NCBI GenBank assembly: GCA_022072205.1
Contig: JAJVID010000143.1
Location: 727-64,726, forward strand
Reading direction: 5' to 3'
DNA from: Acidobacteriota bacterium
GTDB lineage: Bacteria > Acidobacteriota > Blastocatellia > RBC074
DNA length: 64,000 nucleotides
Both the position numbers and the translations under genes were made by a program. Under the pieces are notes generated by a model that did not search any database, was not told the origin of the DNA, and was given only the letters and a program-made list of their open reading frames with translations. This document shows, piece by piece, positions 4,424 through 61,742 of the stretch; position 1 is the stretch's first letter; each line of letters starts with the position of its first letter.

Positions 4424-5167
4424 ATGGTAAAGATTGATGACACGAACAACCCTGGGAAATACGAACGAGACGAATTTTCTCCGAACGAGTACACTGCCGG
4501 CGAACAGAGCGGTGGCCCCAGAGGTTACTCACTCCAGTTCGATGACGACGACCGCGATCCCTGGAACTACGATGATAATTACCGCCGCGATAAAGATCTG
4601 GACGACGATGACGATGATTATCTGAAAGACGAAGACGAGGTGGAGATCGAAGAAGACGACGATAGGTTCAGCGATGAAAAACCCGGCAGCCCCGTTTGGC
4701 CCGGACACAGCGTTGACCAGGAGGAAGAAGAACCTGCTCCAGTTGTCTCAACCGTCTTGTCACCCCCGGCGCCGGAACCCGCGCCAATTCCGGCGGCTGC
4801 TGAACCATCGGCCCCGCCAGCCGCAAAGCCTGCCAGGAAACCGGCCAAGAAAGCTGCAAAGAAAGCTGCGAAGAAGGCTGCGAAACCAGCTAAGAAGGCT
4901 GCTAAGAAAGCCGCCAAGAAAGCCACCAAGAAGGCTGCGAAACCAGCTAAGAAAGCCGCCAAGAAGGCTGCTAAGAAAGCCGCCAAGAAGGCTGCTAAGA
5001 AAGCCGCAAAACCGGCTAAGAAAGCTGCTAAGAAAGTAGCCAAGAAAGCTACAGCCAGGAAAGCCGCAAAACCGGCTAAGAAGGCGACCAAGAAGGCGGC
5101 CAAGACTGCTAAGAAAGCCGTGAAGAAACCAGCTAAGAAGGCTGCCAAGAAAGGCTCCAGAAGATAA
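4424..5167 (+). CDS. bipolar nucleoid-type protein: acidic N-terminal half plus histone H1-like (AKKA)n C-terminal half
   Basis: AAGGAGG SD lies upstream of the ATG. Residues 1-110 are D/E-rich (DDDDDDYLKDEDEVEIEEDDD). Residues 135-247 are repeats of type KPAKKAAKKAAKKAAK. Confidence 0.8.
   Translation: MVKIDDTNNPGKYERDEFSPNEYTAGEQSGGPRGYSLQFDDDDRDPWNYDDNYRRDKDLDDDDDDYLKDEDEVEIEEDDDRFSDEKPGSPVWPGHSVDQEEEEPAPVVSTVLSPPAPEPAPIPAAAEPSAPPAAKPARKPAKKAAKKAAKKAAKPAKKAAKKAAKKATKKAAKPAKKAAKKAAKKAAKKAAKKAAKPAKKAAKKVAKKATARKAAKPAKKATKKAAKTAKKAVKKPAKKAAKKGSRR
4826..5164 (+). repeat. coding low-complexity repeat (AAG AAA GCY GCN, Lys/Ala tract)
   Basis: Imperfect 12/24-nt repeats of aagaaagccgccaagaaggctgct encode the AKKA tail. 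Confidence 0.8.
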
Positions 5168-7150: not shown

Positions 7151-7246
7151 AAAATCAAAAGGCAAAAATCAAAGGGCGAAAGTAAGAGGACGAATTTGCA
7201 GTCCAGAACTTTTGCCCTTTGATTTTTGCCTTTTGATTTTTGATTT
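7151..7246 (-). repeat. heptad-periodic palindrome immediately after the ftsZ stop (probable terminator)
   Basis: Arm 7151-7177 (aaaatcaaaaggcaaaaatcaaagggc) is the exact reverse complement of arm 7214-7240, with a 36-nt loop. Both arms have 7-nt periodicity (tttgccc tttgatt tttgcct tttgatt tttgatt). Confidence 0.85.
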
Positions 7247-12597: not shown

Positions 12598-12658
12598 GTG
12601 GTTGGTGGTTGGTGGTTGGTGGTTGGCCTCTTGATACCAACCACCAACCACCAACCAC
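12598..12658 (-). repeat. GTGGTTG/CAACCAC heptad hairpin filling the murG-murC junction
   Basis: (gtggttg)x4 at 12598-12625, loop gcctcttgata, then (ccaacca)x3 c at 12637-12658. The arms are complementary over 22 nt. Confidence 0.9.
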
Positions 12659-28221: not shown

Positions 28222-29178
28222 ATGGCTACAAAACCTTACGACCAGGCGTTCAAATTTCTCGCCGAGCAGGACCCGGAGAGTCTGTTATTGATGCTCGGCG
28301 CAATCGAACCGGACGAGAATGCCGTCATCGAATTGCTGCCGCGCGAAATCAGCGCGGCCGCCGTGTTGCCTGACCAGCCTTACCTCGTCACATCGGCGCG
28401 CGGCAAGCGCGTGGTTCACGTCGAAGCATGGACGAGATGGGAAAAGGAAATCCCGGATCGGATGGTCGAATACGGGCCGCTGCACTGGTTCAAGTATCTC
28501 CTGCCGGTGGACAGCTACGTCATTCTGCTGACGAAAAAAGGTCTGCCGCGTCGCCCGCCGCGGAGCGGAGTTATCAACGCAGGCGGCACGCGCATCGAGA
28601 CGCGCTTTCATCTGATCCGCGTTTGGAAGATTCCGGCGCGCAAGGCGCTTGAATCGGGACGACCGGCATTGCTGCCCTTCGTGCCATTGATGGACGGTGG
28701 GCGCGAAGAGTTGGAAGCAGGCGCCGAGGCGTTACGCTCAGTGCCTGACGAAAGGCAGCGCAGCGAGATGGGCCTGCATTTTGTGATGCTCGGAGGCCTG
28801 CGCTACAATGACATTGACCTGCTGAAATTGCTCGTCGGAGGAACGTCTATGATGCCAATCGAACGATTACGCGAGTCGAGTTTCTATCAATCCATTCTCA
28901 GAGAAGGACGCGAAGAAGGACGCGAAGAAGGACGCGAAGAAGGACGCGAAGAAGGACGCGAAGAAGGACGCGAAGAGGAAAGACTTAGATTGCTGAAAGT
29001 CACTGCCGATAATTTACGCCAATTGATTGCTAAGCGCTTTCCCAGTATTCAAATCGGCAAAGAACTCGAAGCAATCAGCGATCTCGACATTTTGCAGCGT
29101 TTGTTCATCGAACTCGATGATATCCACGATCCTGACACACTCCGTCGCAGGATTTCCGAATTGGCCACGATGACTTGA
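28222..29178 (+). CDS. Rpn/YhgA-like PD-(D/E)XK putative nuclease/transposase with DUF4351-like tail
   Basis: The N-terminus YDQAFKFLAEQDP...VVHVEAWT...RMVEYGPLHW resembles the Rpn family. C-terminus has an (EGRE)n tract then LRQLIAKRF...LDILQRLF. Start taken at ATG 28222. Family assignment is from memory of motifs, not from a search. Confidence 0.55.
   Translation: MATKPYDQAFKFLAEQDPESLLLMLGAIEPDENAVIELLPREISAAAVLPDQPYLVTSARGKRVVHVEAWTRWEKEIPDRMVEYGPLHWFKYLLPVDSYVILLTKKGLPRRPPRSGVINAGGTRIETRFHLIRVWKIPARKALESGRPALLPFVPLMDGGREELEAGAEALRSVPDERQRSEMGLHFVMLGGLRYNDIDLLKLLVGGTSMMPIERLRESSFYQSILREGREEGREEGREEGREEGREEGREEERLRLLKVTADNLRQLIAKRFPSIQIGKELEAISDLDILQRLFIELDDIHDPDTLRRRISELATMT
28903..28974 (+). 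repeat. perfect 12-nt tandem repeat x6 inside the Rpn-like CDS
   Basis: gaaggacgcgaa repeated six times without mismatch, encoding EGREEGREEGRE... Confidence 0.95.
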
Positions 29179-57167: not shown

Positions 57168-57662
57168 TCAATTCGACAAAAGCAGTTTGATGTACGGACG
57201 CAACACCGGCTCGGTGATAATTTCGCCGAGCCTTTTATTTGTGATGAATCGCCAGACGGGTTCGCCGCCTTCCTGACGTTTGAGAATCAGTTCAGCGACC
57301 GTTCGCGGTTCGAGCATAACGTTTTGACTTAAACCTATCCGCGCGCGCGCCAATCCTCCGCCGGGCACAAAACCGTGTTGCGGTTCGCGCGGCCAGCCGG
57401 CTTCGACGATCAATGTCTTTTCGCGAAAACGCGCGCCGAATCGCTCGCCAACCATCGTCGCATCTTCGATTTTGAACTGCCATTCATGACGGCCAACCTG
57501 CAAAGGCGGATTGGCGCCAGCGCTCAATTCGCGGCTGATCTCCGAGCAGATCACGTCGAGCGCGTTCCACAACCATTGCTTGCCGCGTTCGCGCAATTGG
57601 TCATTTGCGGCCTTCAGCGCCAGGTATTCGTCGGCCAACTCTTTGTTGTCCGGGTTGTTCAT
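57168..57662 (-). CDS. hypothetical protein, translationally coupled downstream of recR
   Basis: 164-aa ORF whose ATG lies 3 nt after the recR stop. No recognisable motif. Confidence 0.55.
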   Translation of the reverse strand: MNNPDNKELADEYLALKAANDQLRERGKQWLWNALDVICSEISRELSAGANPPLQVGRHEWQFKIEDATMVGERFGARFREKTLIVEAGWPREPQHGFVPGGGLARARIGLSQNVMLEPRTVAELILKRQEGGEPVWRFITNKRLGEIITEPVLRPYIKLLLSN

Positions 57663-57665
57663 TCG

Positions 57666-58280
57666 TCAGATTTCGTGGCGGTTGGCGAGAGCCTTGTGCA
57701 TCGTCACTTCGTCGGCGTATTCGAGATCGCTGCCGACGGGCAGCCCCATTGCGATGCGCGTGATGCGGAAGCCGAGCGGTTTGAGCAGGCGCGCCAGGTA
57801 ATTCGCCGTAGCCTCGCCTTCGGTGTTCGGGTTTGTGGCGAGAATGATTTCCTTAACACTGCTTTCGCCGCTTTCGTTCGGGCGCAGGCGTTCAAGCAGG
57901 TTTTTGATCCGAAGCTCTTCGGGGCCAATGCCTCTGATCGGCGAAAGCGCGCCGTGCAGGACGTGGTAGAGGCCGTGATACTCGCGCGTCTTTTCAATCG
58001 CCACCAGATTGTAAGGCTCTTCGACGACACAGATGACCGACCGATCGCGCGAATGGCCGGAACAGTAACGGCAGGGATCAACGTCTGTCAGGTTGTTGCA
58101 GGTAGAACAAAAAACGATCTTCTCTTTGACTTCGCGGATAGCTTCAATCAGACGGTCGGTCTCTTCCTGAGGCGCCTTGAGCACATGAAACGCCAGCCGC
58201 TGCGCCGATTTGTGACCGATGCCGGGCAGCCGTTTAAATTCATCTATGAGTTTTGTTACAGGTTCTGCGTAATCGAGCAT
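57666..58280 (-). CDS. recR: recombination protein RecR
   Basis: HhH motif [15 protein letters not shown], zinc finger [16 protein letters not shown], and Toprim domain. Confidence 0.93.
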
Positions 58281-58283
58281 AGT

Positions 58284-58368
58284 GGAATGGGGAATGGGGA
58301 ATGGGGAATGGGGAATGGGGATGGAATCTCAAGCTTATTCCGCATTCTGCATTCCGCATTCCCCATTC
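58284..58368 (-). repeat. GGAATGG heptad hairpin filling the ybaB-recR junction
   Basis: (ggaatgg)x5 at 58284-58318, then ggatgga atctcaa gcttatt, then ccgcatt ctgcatt ccgcatt ccccatt at 58340-58367. The arms are complementary at about 28/32 positions. Confidence 0.9.
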
Positions 58369-58370
58369 GG

Positions 58371-58682
58371 TTACATCAACCCCGGAATATTCAATCCGCC
58401 AAGAGCGCCGCCGAGTCTGTTGCTCGCGGTTTCGTCAACTTTACGGCCACATTCGTTGATCGCAGCCATGATCAAGTCCTGCAGCATTTCGATGTCGCTC
58501 GCGGCTTCAGGTTCGATTTTGACTGAAAGGACTTCTTTGAGGCCGTTCATTTCAACCCTGACAATGCCGCCTCCTGCCGTCGAATCAACGCGCAGGGTTT
58601 CCATCTCTTTCATCATCTGCTCTTGCATCTTCTGAGCCTGCTTCATCATTTGCTGCAGGTTCATTCCACCGGGAAGTTTCAT
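58371..58682 (-). CDS. ybaB: YbaB/EbfC family nucleoid-associated protein
   Basis: ATG 58680-58682 with [31 protein letters not shown]... is typical of the family. Located between dnaX and recR. Confidence 0.9.
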
Positions 58683-58799
58683 AACACTCTCCTTGAATTT
58701 TGTTACCAAAGCTTTGCGAATCAGCGGCCCTCATCATAACACGCTGAGACCGAAGCGAAGAACCCACTTATCAGTTGTCAATTGTTGAAGGAATTAAGC

Positions 58800-60623
58800 T
58801 CATTTAGTATTCGGAGTGAGAACCTCTTTTTCCTTCACCCAGAGTAACTCCGCCTTAGTCTTCTCTACGATCAGACGCACGGCGGGATTTTGCATCGCGC
58901 GTTCACGCAAGCCTCGCCGTTTTAATTCGGCTTCGTCTATCCGTTCCTCGATCTGTCCGCTGATTTTCACTTCCAGAGTGACTGGCCGCCCAAAAAGGCG
59001 CGCGCCGATGTCGCGGAAAAGCTGTGCGCTGTCGCGCACCCGTTTGGCGAAAACATCGTCGTTGTTGAACGTGATGGCAAGCGTGCCATCACGGAAATCC
59101 AGAGCCTGGGCGTCTTCAAGCGCAGTTAGAACCAGACCTCGATTCATCTTTTGTACCTCTTTCAGGATAGCTTCGACTTCGCGCCCGGCGGGAATCGAAA
59201 CGTCACTCGATTGTACTTGAGCTTGACGCGGCGCCGCTTGTCGAGGACGTTTGATAAATTCCGTCTGGTCAGGTTCGTAAGGCTCTGTCAGATCGAAATC
59301 CGGAAAATCGGGAGGCTCATCCATCCCGCCTGCCGGAGCTTTGGGAATTGATCCAATACTATTTCCCGGCAATTGCGATGTGGATTTGCCGGGTTGTTCT
59401 TTACTCACGGGGTTTTGATTATTAGTAACGGCGCCTTTTGTTACTGGTTGATTAGTAACTCCGCCGCCAGCGGAGCCATTTAACGTCGCCTCAAGGTACT
59501 CAAGCCTTTTTATCAGTTCATCAAGCGTCCTTAGCCTGACCGCATGAGTCAGCTTGACCAGTCCGATTTCGAGCTGAAAGCGTGGATGCGGTGAATCCTT
59601 TATTTCTTTTTCGGTTTCGGCCAGTAGATGAAAGAGCCTGACCAGGTCTTCTTCAGAAAAACTGGAAGCCAGTTGTTTCAACCGATCAACTTCTACGTCA
59701 GTAACACCAGGCAAGCCGTCACCACCTACAGATTTAATTACCAGCAGATGACGCAGGTATGCGGTCAACTCACGAGTAAAATTGCGCAGGTCGTAGCCCC
59801 GAACGAATACCTCTTCAACCAGATTGAGTATCTCCGGGGTGTTTTGGCTGGCGATAGCTTCCACGAAGTTTCCGAGCGTGGCGGCGCTGACCAGGCCCAG
59901 GGAGGTTGTAACGTCTTCTTCGGTAATCTGGTCTCCGCCGAAGGCTATAACCTGGTCGAACGCCGATTGCGCGTCGCGCAGGCTGCCCGCGCCAGCGCGA
60001 GCTATTTCGCGCAAGGCGGCGTCGCTTATTTTTACCCCTTCGCTGCCGGCTATTTCCCGCAGACGCTGAAATATCTTTTCGGTGGGAATCTGCCGGAATT
60101 CAAACTGCTGGCAACGCGAAAGTATAGTGTCGGGGACTTTGTGCAGTTCCGTCGTCGCCATAATGAAGACGACGTGCGCTGGCGGCTCTTCCAGAGTTTT
60201 GAGCAGGGCGTTGAACGCGCTCGTCGAAAGCATGTGGACTTCGTCAATGACGAACGCCTTGTAGCGATCCCGCGCGGGGGCGATTGCAATGTTGTTGATG
60301 ATCACATCACGCACATTATCAACTCCGGTGTTCGACGCGGCGTCAATTTCAAGCACGTCGAGTGAGCCGCCCGCAGCGATTTCGATGCAGGAAGGACATT
60401 GCAGGCAGGGCCGGCTGGTAACGCCGGTATGGCAGTTGAGGCCTTTAGCCAGTATCCGCGCGGTGGTGGTCTTGCCTGTGCCTCGCACGCCGGAAAAAAG
60501 GTAGGCGTGATGAAGCCGCCGCTGGTCCAGCGCGTGTCCGAGCGTGCGTGAAATATGCTCCTGGCCTGTCAAATCGGTGAAGGTTTGAGGGCGGTATTTA
60601 CGAGCAATGACCTGATAACTCAC
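58800..60623 (-). CDS. dnaX: DNA polymerase III subunit gamma/tau
   Basis: AAA+ P-loop [16 protein letters not shown], zinc module [16 protein letters not shown], and SRC motif. Confidence 0.93.
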
Positions 60624-61300: not shown

Positions 61301-61342
61301 ATATTTCATATCACATATGAAATATTGCATATGAAATATGGC
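61301..61342. repeat. ATAT-phased heptad repeat with alternative hairpins
   Basis: atatttc atatcac atatgaa atattgc atatgaa atatggc. The segment catatttcatat can pair with either of two atatgaaatat copies. Confidence 0.8.
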
Positions 61343-61377
61343 TTCAACGCTGTTATCAGCGCCCCGAAAATGGGACA

Positions 61378-61477
61378 GGCTCCGGTTACTGCCGCGGCAC
61401 ATCCGAACAACGCTACCGTTGCTACCTTCCGGTCCTGGCGGGATTCACGCGTTCGGGATTGCACGGAGTCCGGAGCC
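61378..61477 (-). ncRNA. ffs: signal recognition particle RNA (small, 4.5S-type)
   Basis: The minus-strand transcript contains helix-8 core GCCAGGACCGGAAGGUAGCAACGG (GGAA tetraloop, conserved AGCA). The 5' GGCUCCGG pairs with the 3' CCGGAGCC. The location upstream of dnaX matches a widespread synteny. Confidence 0.75.
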
Positions 61478-61484
61478 TGAGATT

Positions 61485-61516
61485 AGGTCTCGATTTCAGA
61501 TATGATATCGAGACCT
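61485..61516 (-). terminator. 10-bp stem-loop between tRNA-Ser and SRP RNA
   Basis: aggtctcgat (61485-61494) pairs with atcgagacct (61507-61516). Confidence 0.4.
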
Positions 61517-61523
61517 TAAAAAC

Positions 61524-61610
<87 letters not shown>

Positions 61611-61612
61611 GC

Positions 61613-61654
61613 ATCTCGGATTTCAAATTTGGAATCCGGGATTCGAGATTTCCG
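61613..61654 (-). repeat. heptad-periodic spacer between the two tRNA-Ser genes
   Basis: atctcgg atttcaa atttgga atccggg attcgag atttccg. It contains the near-palindrome cggatttcaaatttggaatccg. Confidence 0.75.
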
Positions 61655-61655
61655 A

Positions 61656-61742
<87 letters not shown>

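Follow-up and report, generated by a model that had tools for sequence, protein, structure and literature searches.

The window analyzed here, the whole stretch of 64,000 nucleotides (nt), comes from a genome of the Blastocatellia (Acidobacteriota; assembly of 6.47 Mb, 57.5% GC, 89% complete) and contains a ybaB-recR junction whose 90-nt spacer, from the ybaB stop codon to the recR ATG (positions 58281 to 58370), is wholly one hairpin. This hairpin is built from two inverted, pairable arrays of 7-nt units (heptads), G/T-rich on the 5' side and C/A-rich on the 3' side, around a loop of 9 to 15 nt without an open reading frame (ORF). Rather than a regulator specific to this locus, it is a single empty copy belonging to a dispersed repeat and cassette family. 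As to what it does, we consider it moderately probable that this heptad-armed, gene-less cassette is renewed in DNA and that, in RNA, its stem bounds the ybaB transcript and keeps recR low. The features of the junction are given below, where handles beginning with L designate loci with which it was compared.

60623 to 58800, minus strand: dnaX (Pfam confirmed)
58687 to 58694, minus strand: Shine-Dalgarno (SD) sequence of ybaB, AAGGAGAG, 5 nt upstream of the ATG (read from the sequence)
58682 to 58371, minus strand: ybaB, encoding the YbaB/EbfC nucleoid-associated protein (ORF; PF02575, E value of 1e-24)
58369 to 58370, minus strand: 2-nt head CC, from the ybaB stop codon to the first paired base (spacer fold)
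58337 to 58368, minus strand: stop-side (5') arm, GAAUGGG GAAUGCG GAAUGCA GAAUGCG GAAU, diverged units (Tandem Repeats Finder [TRF]; L009 alignment; L115, L116, and L119)
58322 to 58336, minus strand: apical region and loop, AAGCUUGAG with flanking partial units, locus specific (sequence; fold)
58284 to 58321, minus strand: ATG-side (3') arm, (CCAUUCC) x5.4, perfect (TRF; L009 comparison)
58281 to 58283, minus strand: 3-nt tail ACU ahead of the recR AUG, without an SD (sequence; fold)
58285 to 58368, minus strand: whole folded stem-loop, 31 pairs (fold)
58280 to 57666, minus strand: recR, encoding the recombination mediator (ORF; Pfam Toprim_4, RecR_HhH, RecR_ZnF, and RecR_C)

In the mRNA sense, the spacer reads UAA-CC-GAAUGGG GAAUGCG GAAUGCA GAAUGCG GAAU-AAGCUUGAG-AUUCCAUC-(CCAUUCC)x5-ACU-AUG, and the order given in the original prediction (stop codon, diverged arm, loop, five perfect CCAUUCC heptads, AUG) was accurate in every detail. 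Both arms have a period of 7 according to TRF, with 4.6 copies and an 88% match in the stop-side arm and 5.4 copies and a 100% match (GGAATGG) in the ATG-side arm; on the plus (template) strand, the latter reads (GGGGAAT)n. The ybaB stop codon, TAA, is located at 58373 to 58371, and the N terminus of YbaB, MKLPGGM, agrees with that of relatives. Downstream, recR is followed after 3 nt by a 164-amino-acid ORF (57168 to 57662) without a Pfam match, and no hairpin is present there.

Folded alone, the spacer RNA forms a single stem of -41.5 kcal/mol (shuffle mean, -18.8; z = -8.3), a value equaled by none of 200 shuffles, and the plus strand of the spacer folded as DNA reaches -31.1 kcal/mol (z = -9.2). 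The stem begins 2 nt past the ybaB stop codon, finishes 4 nt ahead of the recR AUG, and contains four small internal loops, where units of the old and the new type face each other in C:C and A:C mismatches. Rfam covariance models, applied to the whole window, recovered only the signal recognition particle (SRP) RNA and two tRNAs, with none at the element, and a consensus (sigma-70) promoter scan of 57500 to 59000 found no promoter. The SRP RNA and tRNA genes (61377 to 61742, minus strand) adjoin further heptad-like arrays at 61301 to 61340. In addition, the last ybaB codons (58374 to 58390) can pair with the first recR codons (58262 to 58280), lengthening the helix past the heptad arms; in relatives, this extension reaches 12 nt into ybaB and 7 nt into recR (medians), and conservation of the two coding ends may contribute to it.

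That the element belongs to a family is evident from the whole assembly, in which 224 exact tandem arrays of at least three copies have a period of 7, and 12, 34, 29, and 13 have periods of 5, 6, 8, and 9, respectively. An inverted partner is present no more than 150 nt away for 161 of the 224 period-7 arrays. The arrays fall into 26 unit classes, and their lengths peak at 4 to 5 units. The G-rich unit forms are one-step neighbors of each other (GCGGATT, GCGGAAT, GGGGAAT, GGGGAGT, and AGGGAGT), with GGTGGTT and GAAGACA among the further classes; the largest families are GCGGATT (90 arrays) and GGTGGTT (23 arrays). Another family, AAGACAG (10 arrays), resembles an apex, AAGA..CAG..TCTT, that is shared in the Pyrinomonadaceae by many heptad hairpins of different unit families. 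Unit repertoires are lineage specific; (GGGGAAT)3, for example, has 37 matches in this genome, and of 150 other genomes of the class, only 2 contain it. Arms with an identical order of variant units recur at separate loci. We considered a miniature inverted-repeat transposable element, with copying of the whole element and target-site duplications, and rejected it; loops differ between loci that share one unit family and are mutually unrelated across the genome, and no duplicated flank was seen. A perfect tandem repeat of 12 nt is also present in the window (AGAAGGACGCGA x6.2, 100% match; 28902 to 28976). The SbcD_C domain was not found in the 89% complete assembly, a search that gave a match in only 5 of 14 control genomes; its absence, if real, could help long palindromes persist.

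Gene context was assigned to 70 strictly defined hairpins with a simple gene caller written for this analysis. Of these hairpins, 47 were located between codirectional genes, 10 between convergent genes, 1 between divergent genes, and 12 inside genes, so that the divergent location accounted for 1 of 58 intergenic hairpins versus a baseline of 13% (p = 0.003). The hairpins lie close to the upstream stop codon, with the hairpin base at -14 to +8 nt from it in 42 of the 47 codirectional cases, and hairpins abut the stop codon even where 77 to 900 nt are free on the opposite side. The downstream ATG mostly lies 0 to 26 nt past the hairpin, the C/A-rich array often continues unpaired up to that ATG, and an SD is mostly absent. 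The arrangement of stop codon, hairpin, and start codon that had been noted at murG/murC (12598 to 12658) and at other sites of the window is real and recurs genome-wide. Approximately 4% of the codirectional junctions in the genome carry such a hairpin. In 113 of 127 hairpins, the 5' arm has more G than C, whichever strand the genes are on, and the ybaB/recR element has this same polarity. Because the reverse complement of a G-first hairpin is again G first, the position of the C-rich arm beside the AUG, which the original prediction had read as part of the design of the junction, is a property of the element and not of the gene.

The arrays also change rapidly. In the closest relative, L009, RecR is 96% identical and the flanks are nearly identical to those of the window, but all ATG-side units differ at one shared position (ATTCCCC in the window, ATTCCGC in L009), whereas the stop-side arm of the window retains GAATGCG, plus one new GAATGGG unit at its base. 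The stop-side units represent the older GCGGAAT state, and the window copy is a hybrid caught in mid-sweep, in which a variant unit has swept one arm and thereby produced the C:C mismatches in the fold. A recent change on one side had been proposed from the perfect copies in one arm, and the comparison with L009 bears this out. A flank-anchored scan of metagenome contigs yielded seven more alleles (approximately 87 to 100% nucleotide identity), comprising one identical allele, three of the GCGGAAT family (90, 90, and 97 nt), two of the GGGGAGT/GGGGAAT family, and one of the GCGGATT family. Spacer lengths in close relatives (83 nt in L009 and 90, 90, 90, and 97 nt) differ by exact 7-nt steps, and the suspected copy number polymorphism of the array is hence found between strains or species; within samples, the public runs consist of k=31 contigs, which break inside the perfect array.

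Exchange between the arms has left traces as well. A consensus fold of nine alleles contains 25 pairs, 7 of which show compensatory double changes, with the window supplying the broken CC pairs. In L116, the loop (CGAGTCCAAAGATCG) reads as the reverse complement of the L115 loop (GATCTTTAGACTCG), with the arms being alike, and the center was apparently flipped by recombination between the inverted arms. Finally, a near-identical strain, which matches the window at all 72 nt of ybaB beside the junction and has 2 mismatches in the 482 nt out to 58850, carries the units GGGAGTA GGGAATA GGGAGTG beside the ybaB stop codon, a variant order that is also found at another locus of the window's genome (C72:29255). 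Given the length steps, the compensatory changes, the loop flip, and the shared variant order, slippage, interarm exchange, and interlocus copying are all visible at this one junction.

While the units turn over, the position persists. A RecR search yielded 80 loci (L001 to L080), all from genomes labeled Blastocatellia, Pyrinomonadaceae, or Chloracidobacterium, and in 60 of these, a ybaB-recR spacer of 40 to 170 nt contains a hairpin of at least 12 bp (47 passed a strict heptad test). Ten of the 80 loci have spacers of 0 to 21 nt, and 7 have spacers longer than 175 nt. Unit sequences vary almost everywhere (GCGGATT, TTTTGGA, TTTTCAG, GTGATAA, GGTTCAA, GAGGTCA, GCTCACA, and others), even between near-identical RecR proteins (L027 versus L029 and L044 versus L053), and presence or absence of the hairpin switches at least 16 times on the RecR tree. 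In 46 relatives, the median distance from stop codon to stem is 0 to 2 nt and that from stem to ATG is approximately 6 nt; the tails before the recR AUG contain 6% G, and an SD was found nowhere at the junction among the relatives measured. A single detector applied to the 80 relatives made 29 calls at ybaB/recR, 20 just after the recR stop codon, 10 at the next junction, and no more than 3 at dnaX/ybaB. Occupancy is therefore strongly site dependent, and at ybaB/recR, where approximately 60 to 75% of genomes are occupied, it is far above the share of codirectional junctions given above. The hairpins right after the recR stop codon, in 20 of the 80 relatives, are heptad hairpins located approximately +603 to +634 nt from the recR ATG.

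The organism was found in activated-sludge and bioreactor samples, and contigs matching at least 99% were taken from eight metatranscriptome runs of four studies (X25 to X29, X31, X32, and X34). In all eight, ybaB has a depth of 2 to 6.6, with contigs spanning from approximately 58672 to 58719 down to 58349 to 58389. The depth of recR is 0 in every run, except for one 120-nt piece from a variant strain in X31, and that of dnaX is mostly 0. In X29, the ybaB contig passes the stop-side arm and the loop and reaches 58292, inside the ATG-side arm, which means that the hairpin is transcribed with ybaB. As DNA contigs of the same organism span 58292 to 58850 unbroken, the shorter RNA contigs reflect coverage rather than the assembly graph. 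A similar pattern was observed for ftsZ in X31, where a contig covering 6074 to 7127 at a depth of 16.6 ends just before a heptad hairpin that follows the stop codon (7151 to 7246), with a depth of 0.9 beyond it. An effect of the hairpin on the expression of ybaB versus recR is thus plausible. Among the few other genes expressed in the metatranscriptomes is a lysine/alanine-rich repeat gene (4825 to 5156; AAGAAAGCTGCT-type periods of 12, 24, 57, and 69 nt), which shows strain indels, including a 6-nt insertion at 4625, and rearranged repeat joints.

At the start of recR, the AUG is preceded by CCCCAUUCCACU and has no purine-rich SD, unlike that of ybaB with its AAGGAGAG. The absence of an SD, to which attention had been drawn in the original prediction, is thus true for recR but unremarkable, since an SD-like motif is present at only approximately 38% of the gene starts in this genome (versus 10% in the background). 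In free RNA, positions -15 to +2 around the recR AUG are approximately 71% paired, a figure that falls to approximately 45% with a ribosome on the ybaB stop codon. Relatives without the hairpin mostly have spacers of 0 to 12 nt, the classical arrangement for coupling. Genes for RNase III (rnc) and Rho are present in the genome. Low, ybaB-coupled production of RecR would fit the biology, as YbaB is abundant as a nucleoid protein and little RecR is required.

A further link concerns PF05635, the 23S rRNA intervening-sequence protein, an Avd-like four-helix bundle. In L054 and L070, the ybaB-recR spacer is approximately 460 nt long, with complementary heptad arrays at both ends that enclose an ORF (L054:2537-3000); the ORF of L054 matches PF05635 at an E value of 3e-14, and that of L070 was judged only by eye. 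The orthologous site is thus filled in these two relatives and holds an empty copy in the window, and L079 and L047 resemble collapsed, one-unit remnants of the L054/L070 arm type. In the window's genome, all three strong PF05635 genes adjoin heptad arrays (C7:56907-57400, C119:6850-7500, and C44:1130-1600), and a random 260-nt flank meets an array with a probability of approximately 0.008. The gene at C7:56985-57290 lies exactly between (GAAGACA)3 and (TGTCTTC)n, and that at C119:7024-7338 is flanked on both sides by complete hairpins of the GGGGAGT/GGGGAAT type, the unit family of ybaB/recR. A set of 26 genomes from the same family yielded 24 PF05635 loci; at 15 of these, both flanks are heptad periodic, and in at least 11 of the 15, the flanks are complementary. 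No link between heptad hairpins and PF05635 was found in the published literature searched, nor did the search return heptad hairpins in Acidobacteria.

It is tempting to speculate that gene-less heptad hairpins, PF05635 cassettes, and rRNA intervening sequences are one system, although we would not expect this broad proposal to hold. In such a system, a multimeric PF05635 protein might read approximately five units of its own arm type and maintain, copy, or process the hairpins, an activity that we likewise regard as improbable; its partners would be host enzymes, conceivably RNase III, or a polymerase or reverse transcriptase, a suggestion just as tentative. If it were true, the empty copies at operon junctions would be RNA switches, controlled in trans, that set the ratios of genes within operons. 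As a side prediction, G-first polarity would arise since both 3' ends at a break would be extended with the same unit; alternatively, it would exist because Rho could load on a C-rich arm if that arm were the first to emerge.

The explanation that we favor for the junction itself is narrower. The family consists of lineage-specific palindromes, each with a G/T-rich array of approximately 4 to 5 heptads, a locus-specific loop, and a complementary C/A-rich array, that lodge directly after stop codons. In DNA, 7-nt units are gained and lost by slippage, a variant unit sweeps one arm and the other arm follows, and exchange takes place between the arms and with other loci; the window copy, with an old GCGGAAT arm opposite a new GGGGAAT-complement arm, is one stage of this process. 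In the dnaX-ybaB-recR transcript, the stem of approximately 31 bp would bring the ybaB stop codon and the recR AUG within a few nucleotides of each other. It would form or protect the 3' end of the abundant ybaB RNA, whether by blocking 3' exonucleases, by weak factor-dependent termination, or by offering RNase III a site of the kind present in rRNA intervening sequences. It would also bury the zone in which the 30S subunit lands on recR, a gene without an SD. Only a little RecR would then be produced, through translation of read-through RNA by ribosomes coming directly from termination on ybaB.

Several observations weigh against this explanation. The RNA data are k=31 contigs of low depth, which give no true 3' ends or ratios and in which structured RNA is undersampled, and one more data set labeled RNA (X20) was flat at 3 to 8x over 20 kb, as DNA would be, and was not used for expression. 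A strong promoter belonging to ybaB itself could alternatively account for the high level of its RNA. At ybaB/recR, the stem is not followed by a U-tract (tail ACU-AUG, CCACUAUG) and is thus not a canonical intrinsic terminator; at least 5 T's within 8 nt were found in 1 of 46 relatives, a count taken past the extended helix and hence not clean, and remeasured tails in relatives are T/A-rich and G-poor, not U-tracts. The 10 relatives with spacers of 0 to 21 nt lack the hairpin. With Watson-Crick pairs only, since folding with G:U allowed was confounded by register shifts, G:U-type versus A:C-type mismatches numbered 44 versus 52 on the sense strand across the genome, showing no RNA-strand bias, and 41 versus 27 at the junction in relatives (p = 0.11). 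The 12 of 70 strict hairpins within genes point to insertion regardless of function. Together with the missing G:U bias, these intragenic copies speak for the view that the element is purely a passenger, that is, a selfish or neutral palindromic repeat and empty cassette remnant kept by slippage and by interarm and interlocus exchange, tolerated since the folded hairpin leaves stop and start codons adjacent, with any effect on expression being incidental. This view, which we take to be a real but lesser possibility, would also account for the lineage-specific, multicopy unit families, such as that of (GGGGAAT)3, for the unrelated units beside near-identical RecR proteins, for the repeated gains or losses on the RecR tree, and for the filled, empty, and collapsed forms at one site. 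It fits less well with the occupancy of the junction, so much higher than that of codirectional junctions in general, while dnaX/ybaB is almost never occupied, with the strict anchoring to stop codons, which holds despite hundreds of free bases at some sites, and with the fall in RNA level at the element.

Another alternative, implied by the original prediction, is that the stem was selected as a bridge that holds the ybaB stop codon and the recR AUG together, with terminating ribosomes melting the base of the stem and reinitiating on recR without an SD. The tight distances on both sides of the stem in 46 relatives, the G-poor tails and absence of an SD throughout, the short spacers of hairpin-less relatives, the rise from 29% to 55% unpaired in the -15 to +2 zone upon placing a ribosome on the stop codon, and the pairing of the last ybaB codons with the first recR codons outside the arms all agree with such coupling. 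We nevertheless think it unlikely, as the same elements also follow the last genes of operons or separate convergent genes, sites that offer nothing to couple, the polarity belongs to the element itself, recR RNA is itself scarce, and a direct spacer of 0 to 12 nt would couple at least equally well, so that the hairpin adds nothing. Equally doubtful to us is the idea that the five 7-nt units dock, as DNA or RNA, a PF05635 (Avd-like) multimer encoded by a filled cassette elsewhere, binding of which would be predicted to control the stem or its propagation. PF05635 genes between complementary heptad arms in this genome and its family, the ORFs of this type at ybaB/recR in L054 and (by eye) L070, the peak in array length at 4 to 5 units, and the shared unit family around the C119 gene point in this direction; however, GCGGATT and GGTGGTT have no cognate gene in the 89% complete assembly, and 26 unit classes stand against only 3 to 4 such genes. 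On the template strand, (GGGGAAT)5 could also fold into a G-quadruplex (G4) that blocks RNA polymerase before recR, since the plus strand at 58284 to 58321 contains a G4-capable motif with six G-runs and 3-nt loops, and GGGAATC-type heptamer repeats form G4 in vitro (PMC4692102). This seems very improbable, given that most unit families with the same architecture and position lack G-runs (GCGGATT, GGTGGTT, GAAGACA, TTTTGGA, and GTGATAA) and that the complementary arm competes for the G-rich strand. We give just as little credit to an ordinary intrinsic terminator of the ybaB transcript. A strong stem right after the stop codon, the drop in RNA past it, and short T-rich tails in some relatives would suit one, but besides the lack of a U-tract, a consensus terminator scan of 57500 to 59000 did not call the element, the stem is 3 to 4 times the length of terminator stems, and the recR AUG, 4 nt past the stem, leaves no room for a promoter.

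Overrepresentation of heptamers in bacteria has been known since the 1990s to 2000s (cyanobacterial STRR, Xanthomonas), without an explanation, and in print, the family is known only in fragments, from the heptamer pairs of Xanthomonas and from the intervening sequences of rRNA. The ybaB/recR junction connects gene-less hairpins with the latter and provides, at a single orthologous position in a housekeeping operon, a natural series of unusual clarity, from the empty site (0 to 12 nt) via the one-unit remnant, hairpins with many different units, the mid-sweep hybrid, and the apparent loop inversion to the filled cassette. Such a series makes it testable how arrays come to be written and remain complementary and whether operon ratios are set by them, with YbaB being abundant and RecR scarce. 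It also holds a warning for annotation: where operon spacers of Acidobacteriota contain long perfect stems, these are repeat elements and should not be taken for riboswitches or terminators.

Of the systems described previously, the closest are the G-rich heptamer repeats that occur in inverted orientation in Xanthomonas (GGGAATC) and Nostoc (GGGGAYT) (Rehm et al. 2015, PMC4692102). These 7-nt units, mostly in approximately 4 copies, are paired in inverted, convergent arrays, of which the G-rich one comes first whichever strand is read, between codirectional ORFs and no more than 50 bp from the sense-strand stop codon or overlapping it, and are rare between divergent ORFs; their position is conserved between species while length and sequence vary, and transcripts often start or stop inside them. 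The elements described here share the unit length, the polarity, the proximity to stop codons (2 nt at ybaB/recR), and the avoidance of divergent locations. Xanthomonas makes do with essentially a single unit, whereas 26 unit classes are present in this genome and every relative has units of its own. Here, almost all of the arrays are paired into hairpins, which fill operon spacers, and G4 formation cannot be the common principle, as most sister unit families lack G-runs; moreover, no link to four-helix-bundle genes was made for the earlier repeats. Intergenic tandem heptamers near start codons are also known as cyanobacterial STRR and as the TAACTGA arrays of the Beggiatoaceae (MacGregor 2015, PMC4679880), in genomes with few SD sites, and a role in translation was proposed. 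Most of those arrays are direct and repeat one fixed unit (169 direct sets, one indirect). The heptads analyzed here have a comparable location but form inverted pairs of many units.

The REP/BIME elements of enterobacteria are species-specific extragenic palindromes present in hundreds of copies, just after stop codons and inside operons. They stabilize upstream mRNA and lower distal expression (malE-malF), affect translation when located no more than approximately 15 nt from the stop codon, and are mobilized by RAYT transposases, with a conserved GTAG head and no heptad periodicity. The ybaB/recR element resembles them as an extragenic palindrome after a stop codon within an operon and in its proposed role as a boundary, but heptad periodicity, locus-specific loops, and the lack of a conserved head sequence set it apart. 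Membership in the RAYT/REP group was rejected, as none of the three Y1_Tnp genes in the genome has a heptad element within 6 kb. The intervening sequences (IVSs) of 23S rRNA, for their part, are excised by RNase III. ORF-bearing IVSs, with the S23p (PF05635) gene, are described for Coxiella and Leptospira (PMC4990558). While the ybaB/recR copy differs from an IVS in being located in an mRNA spacer and in having no cargo, the two have in common a long stem, a loop able to carry a PF05635 gene, insertion of a selfish kind, and transcription within host RNA, and two relatives (one of them, L070, judged by eye) carry precisely such a gene inside the heptad arms at ybaB/recR.

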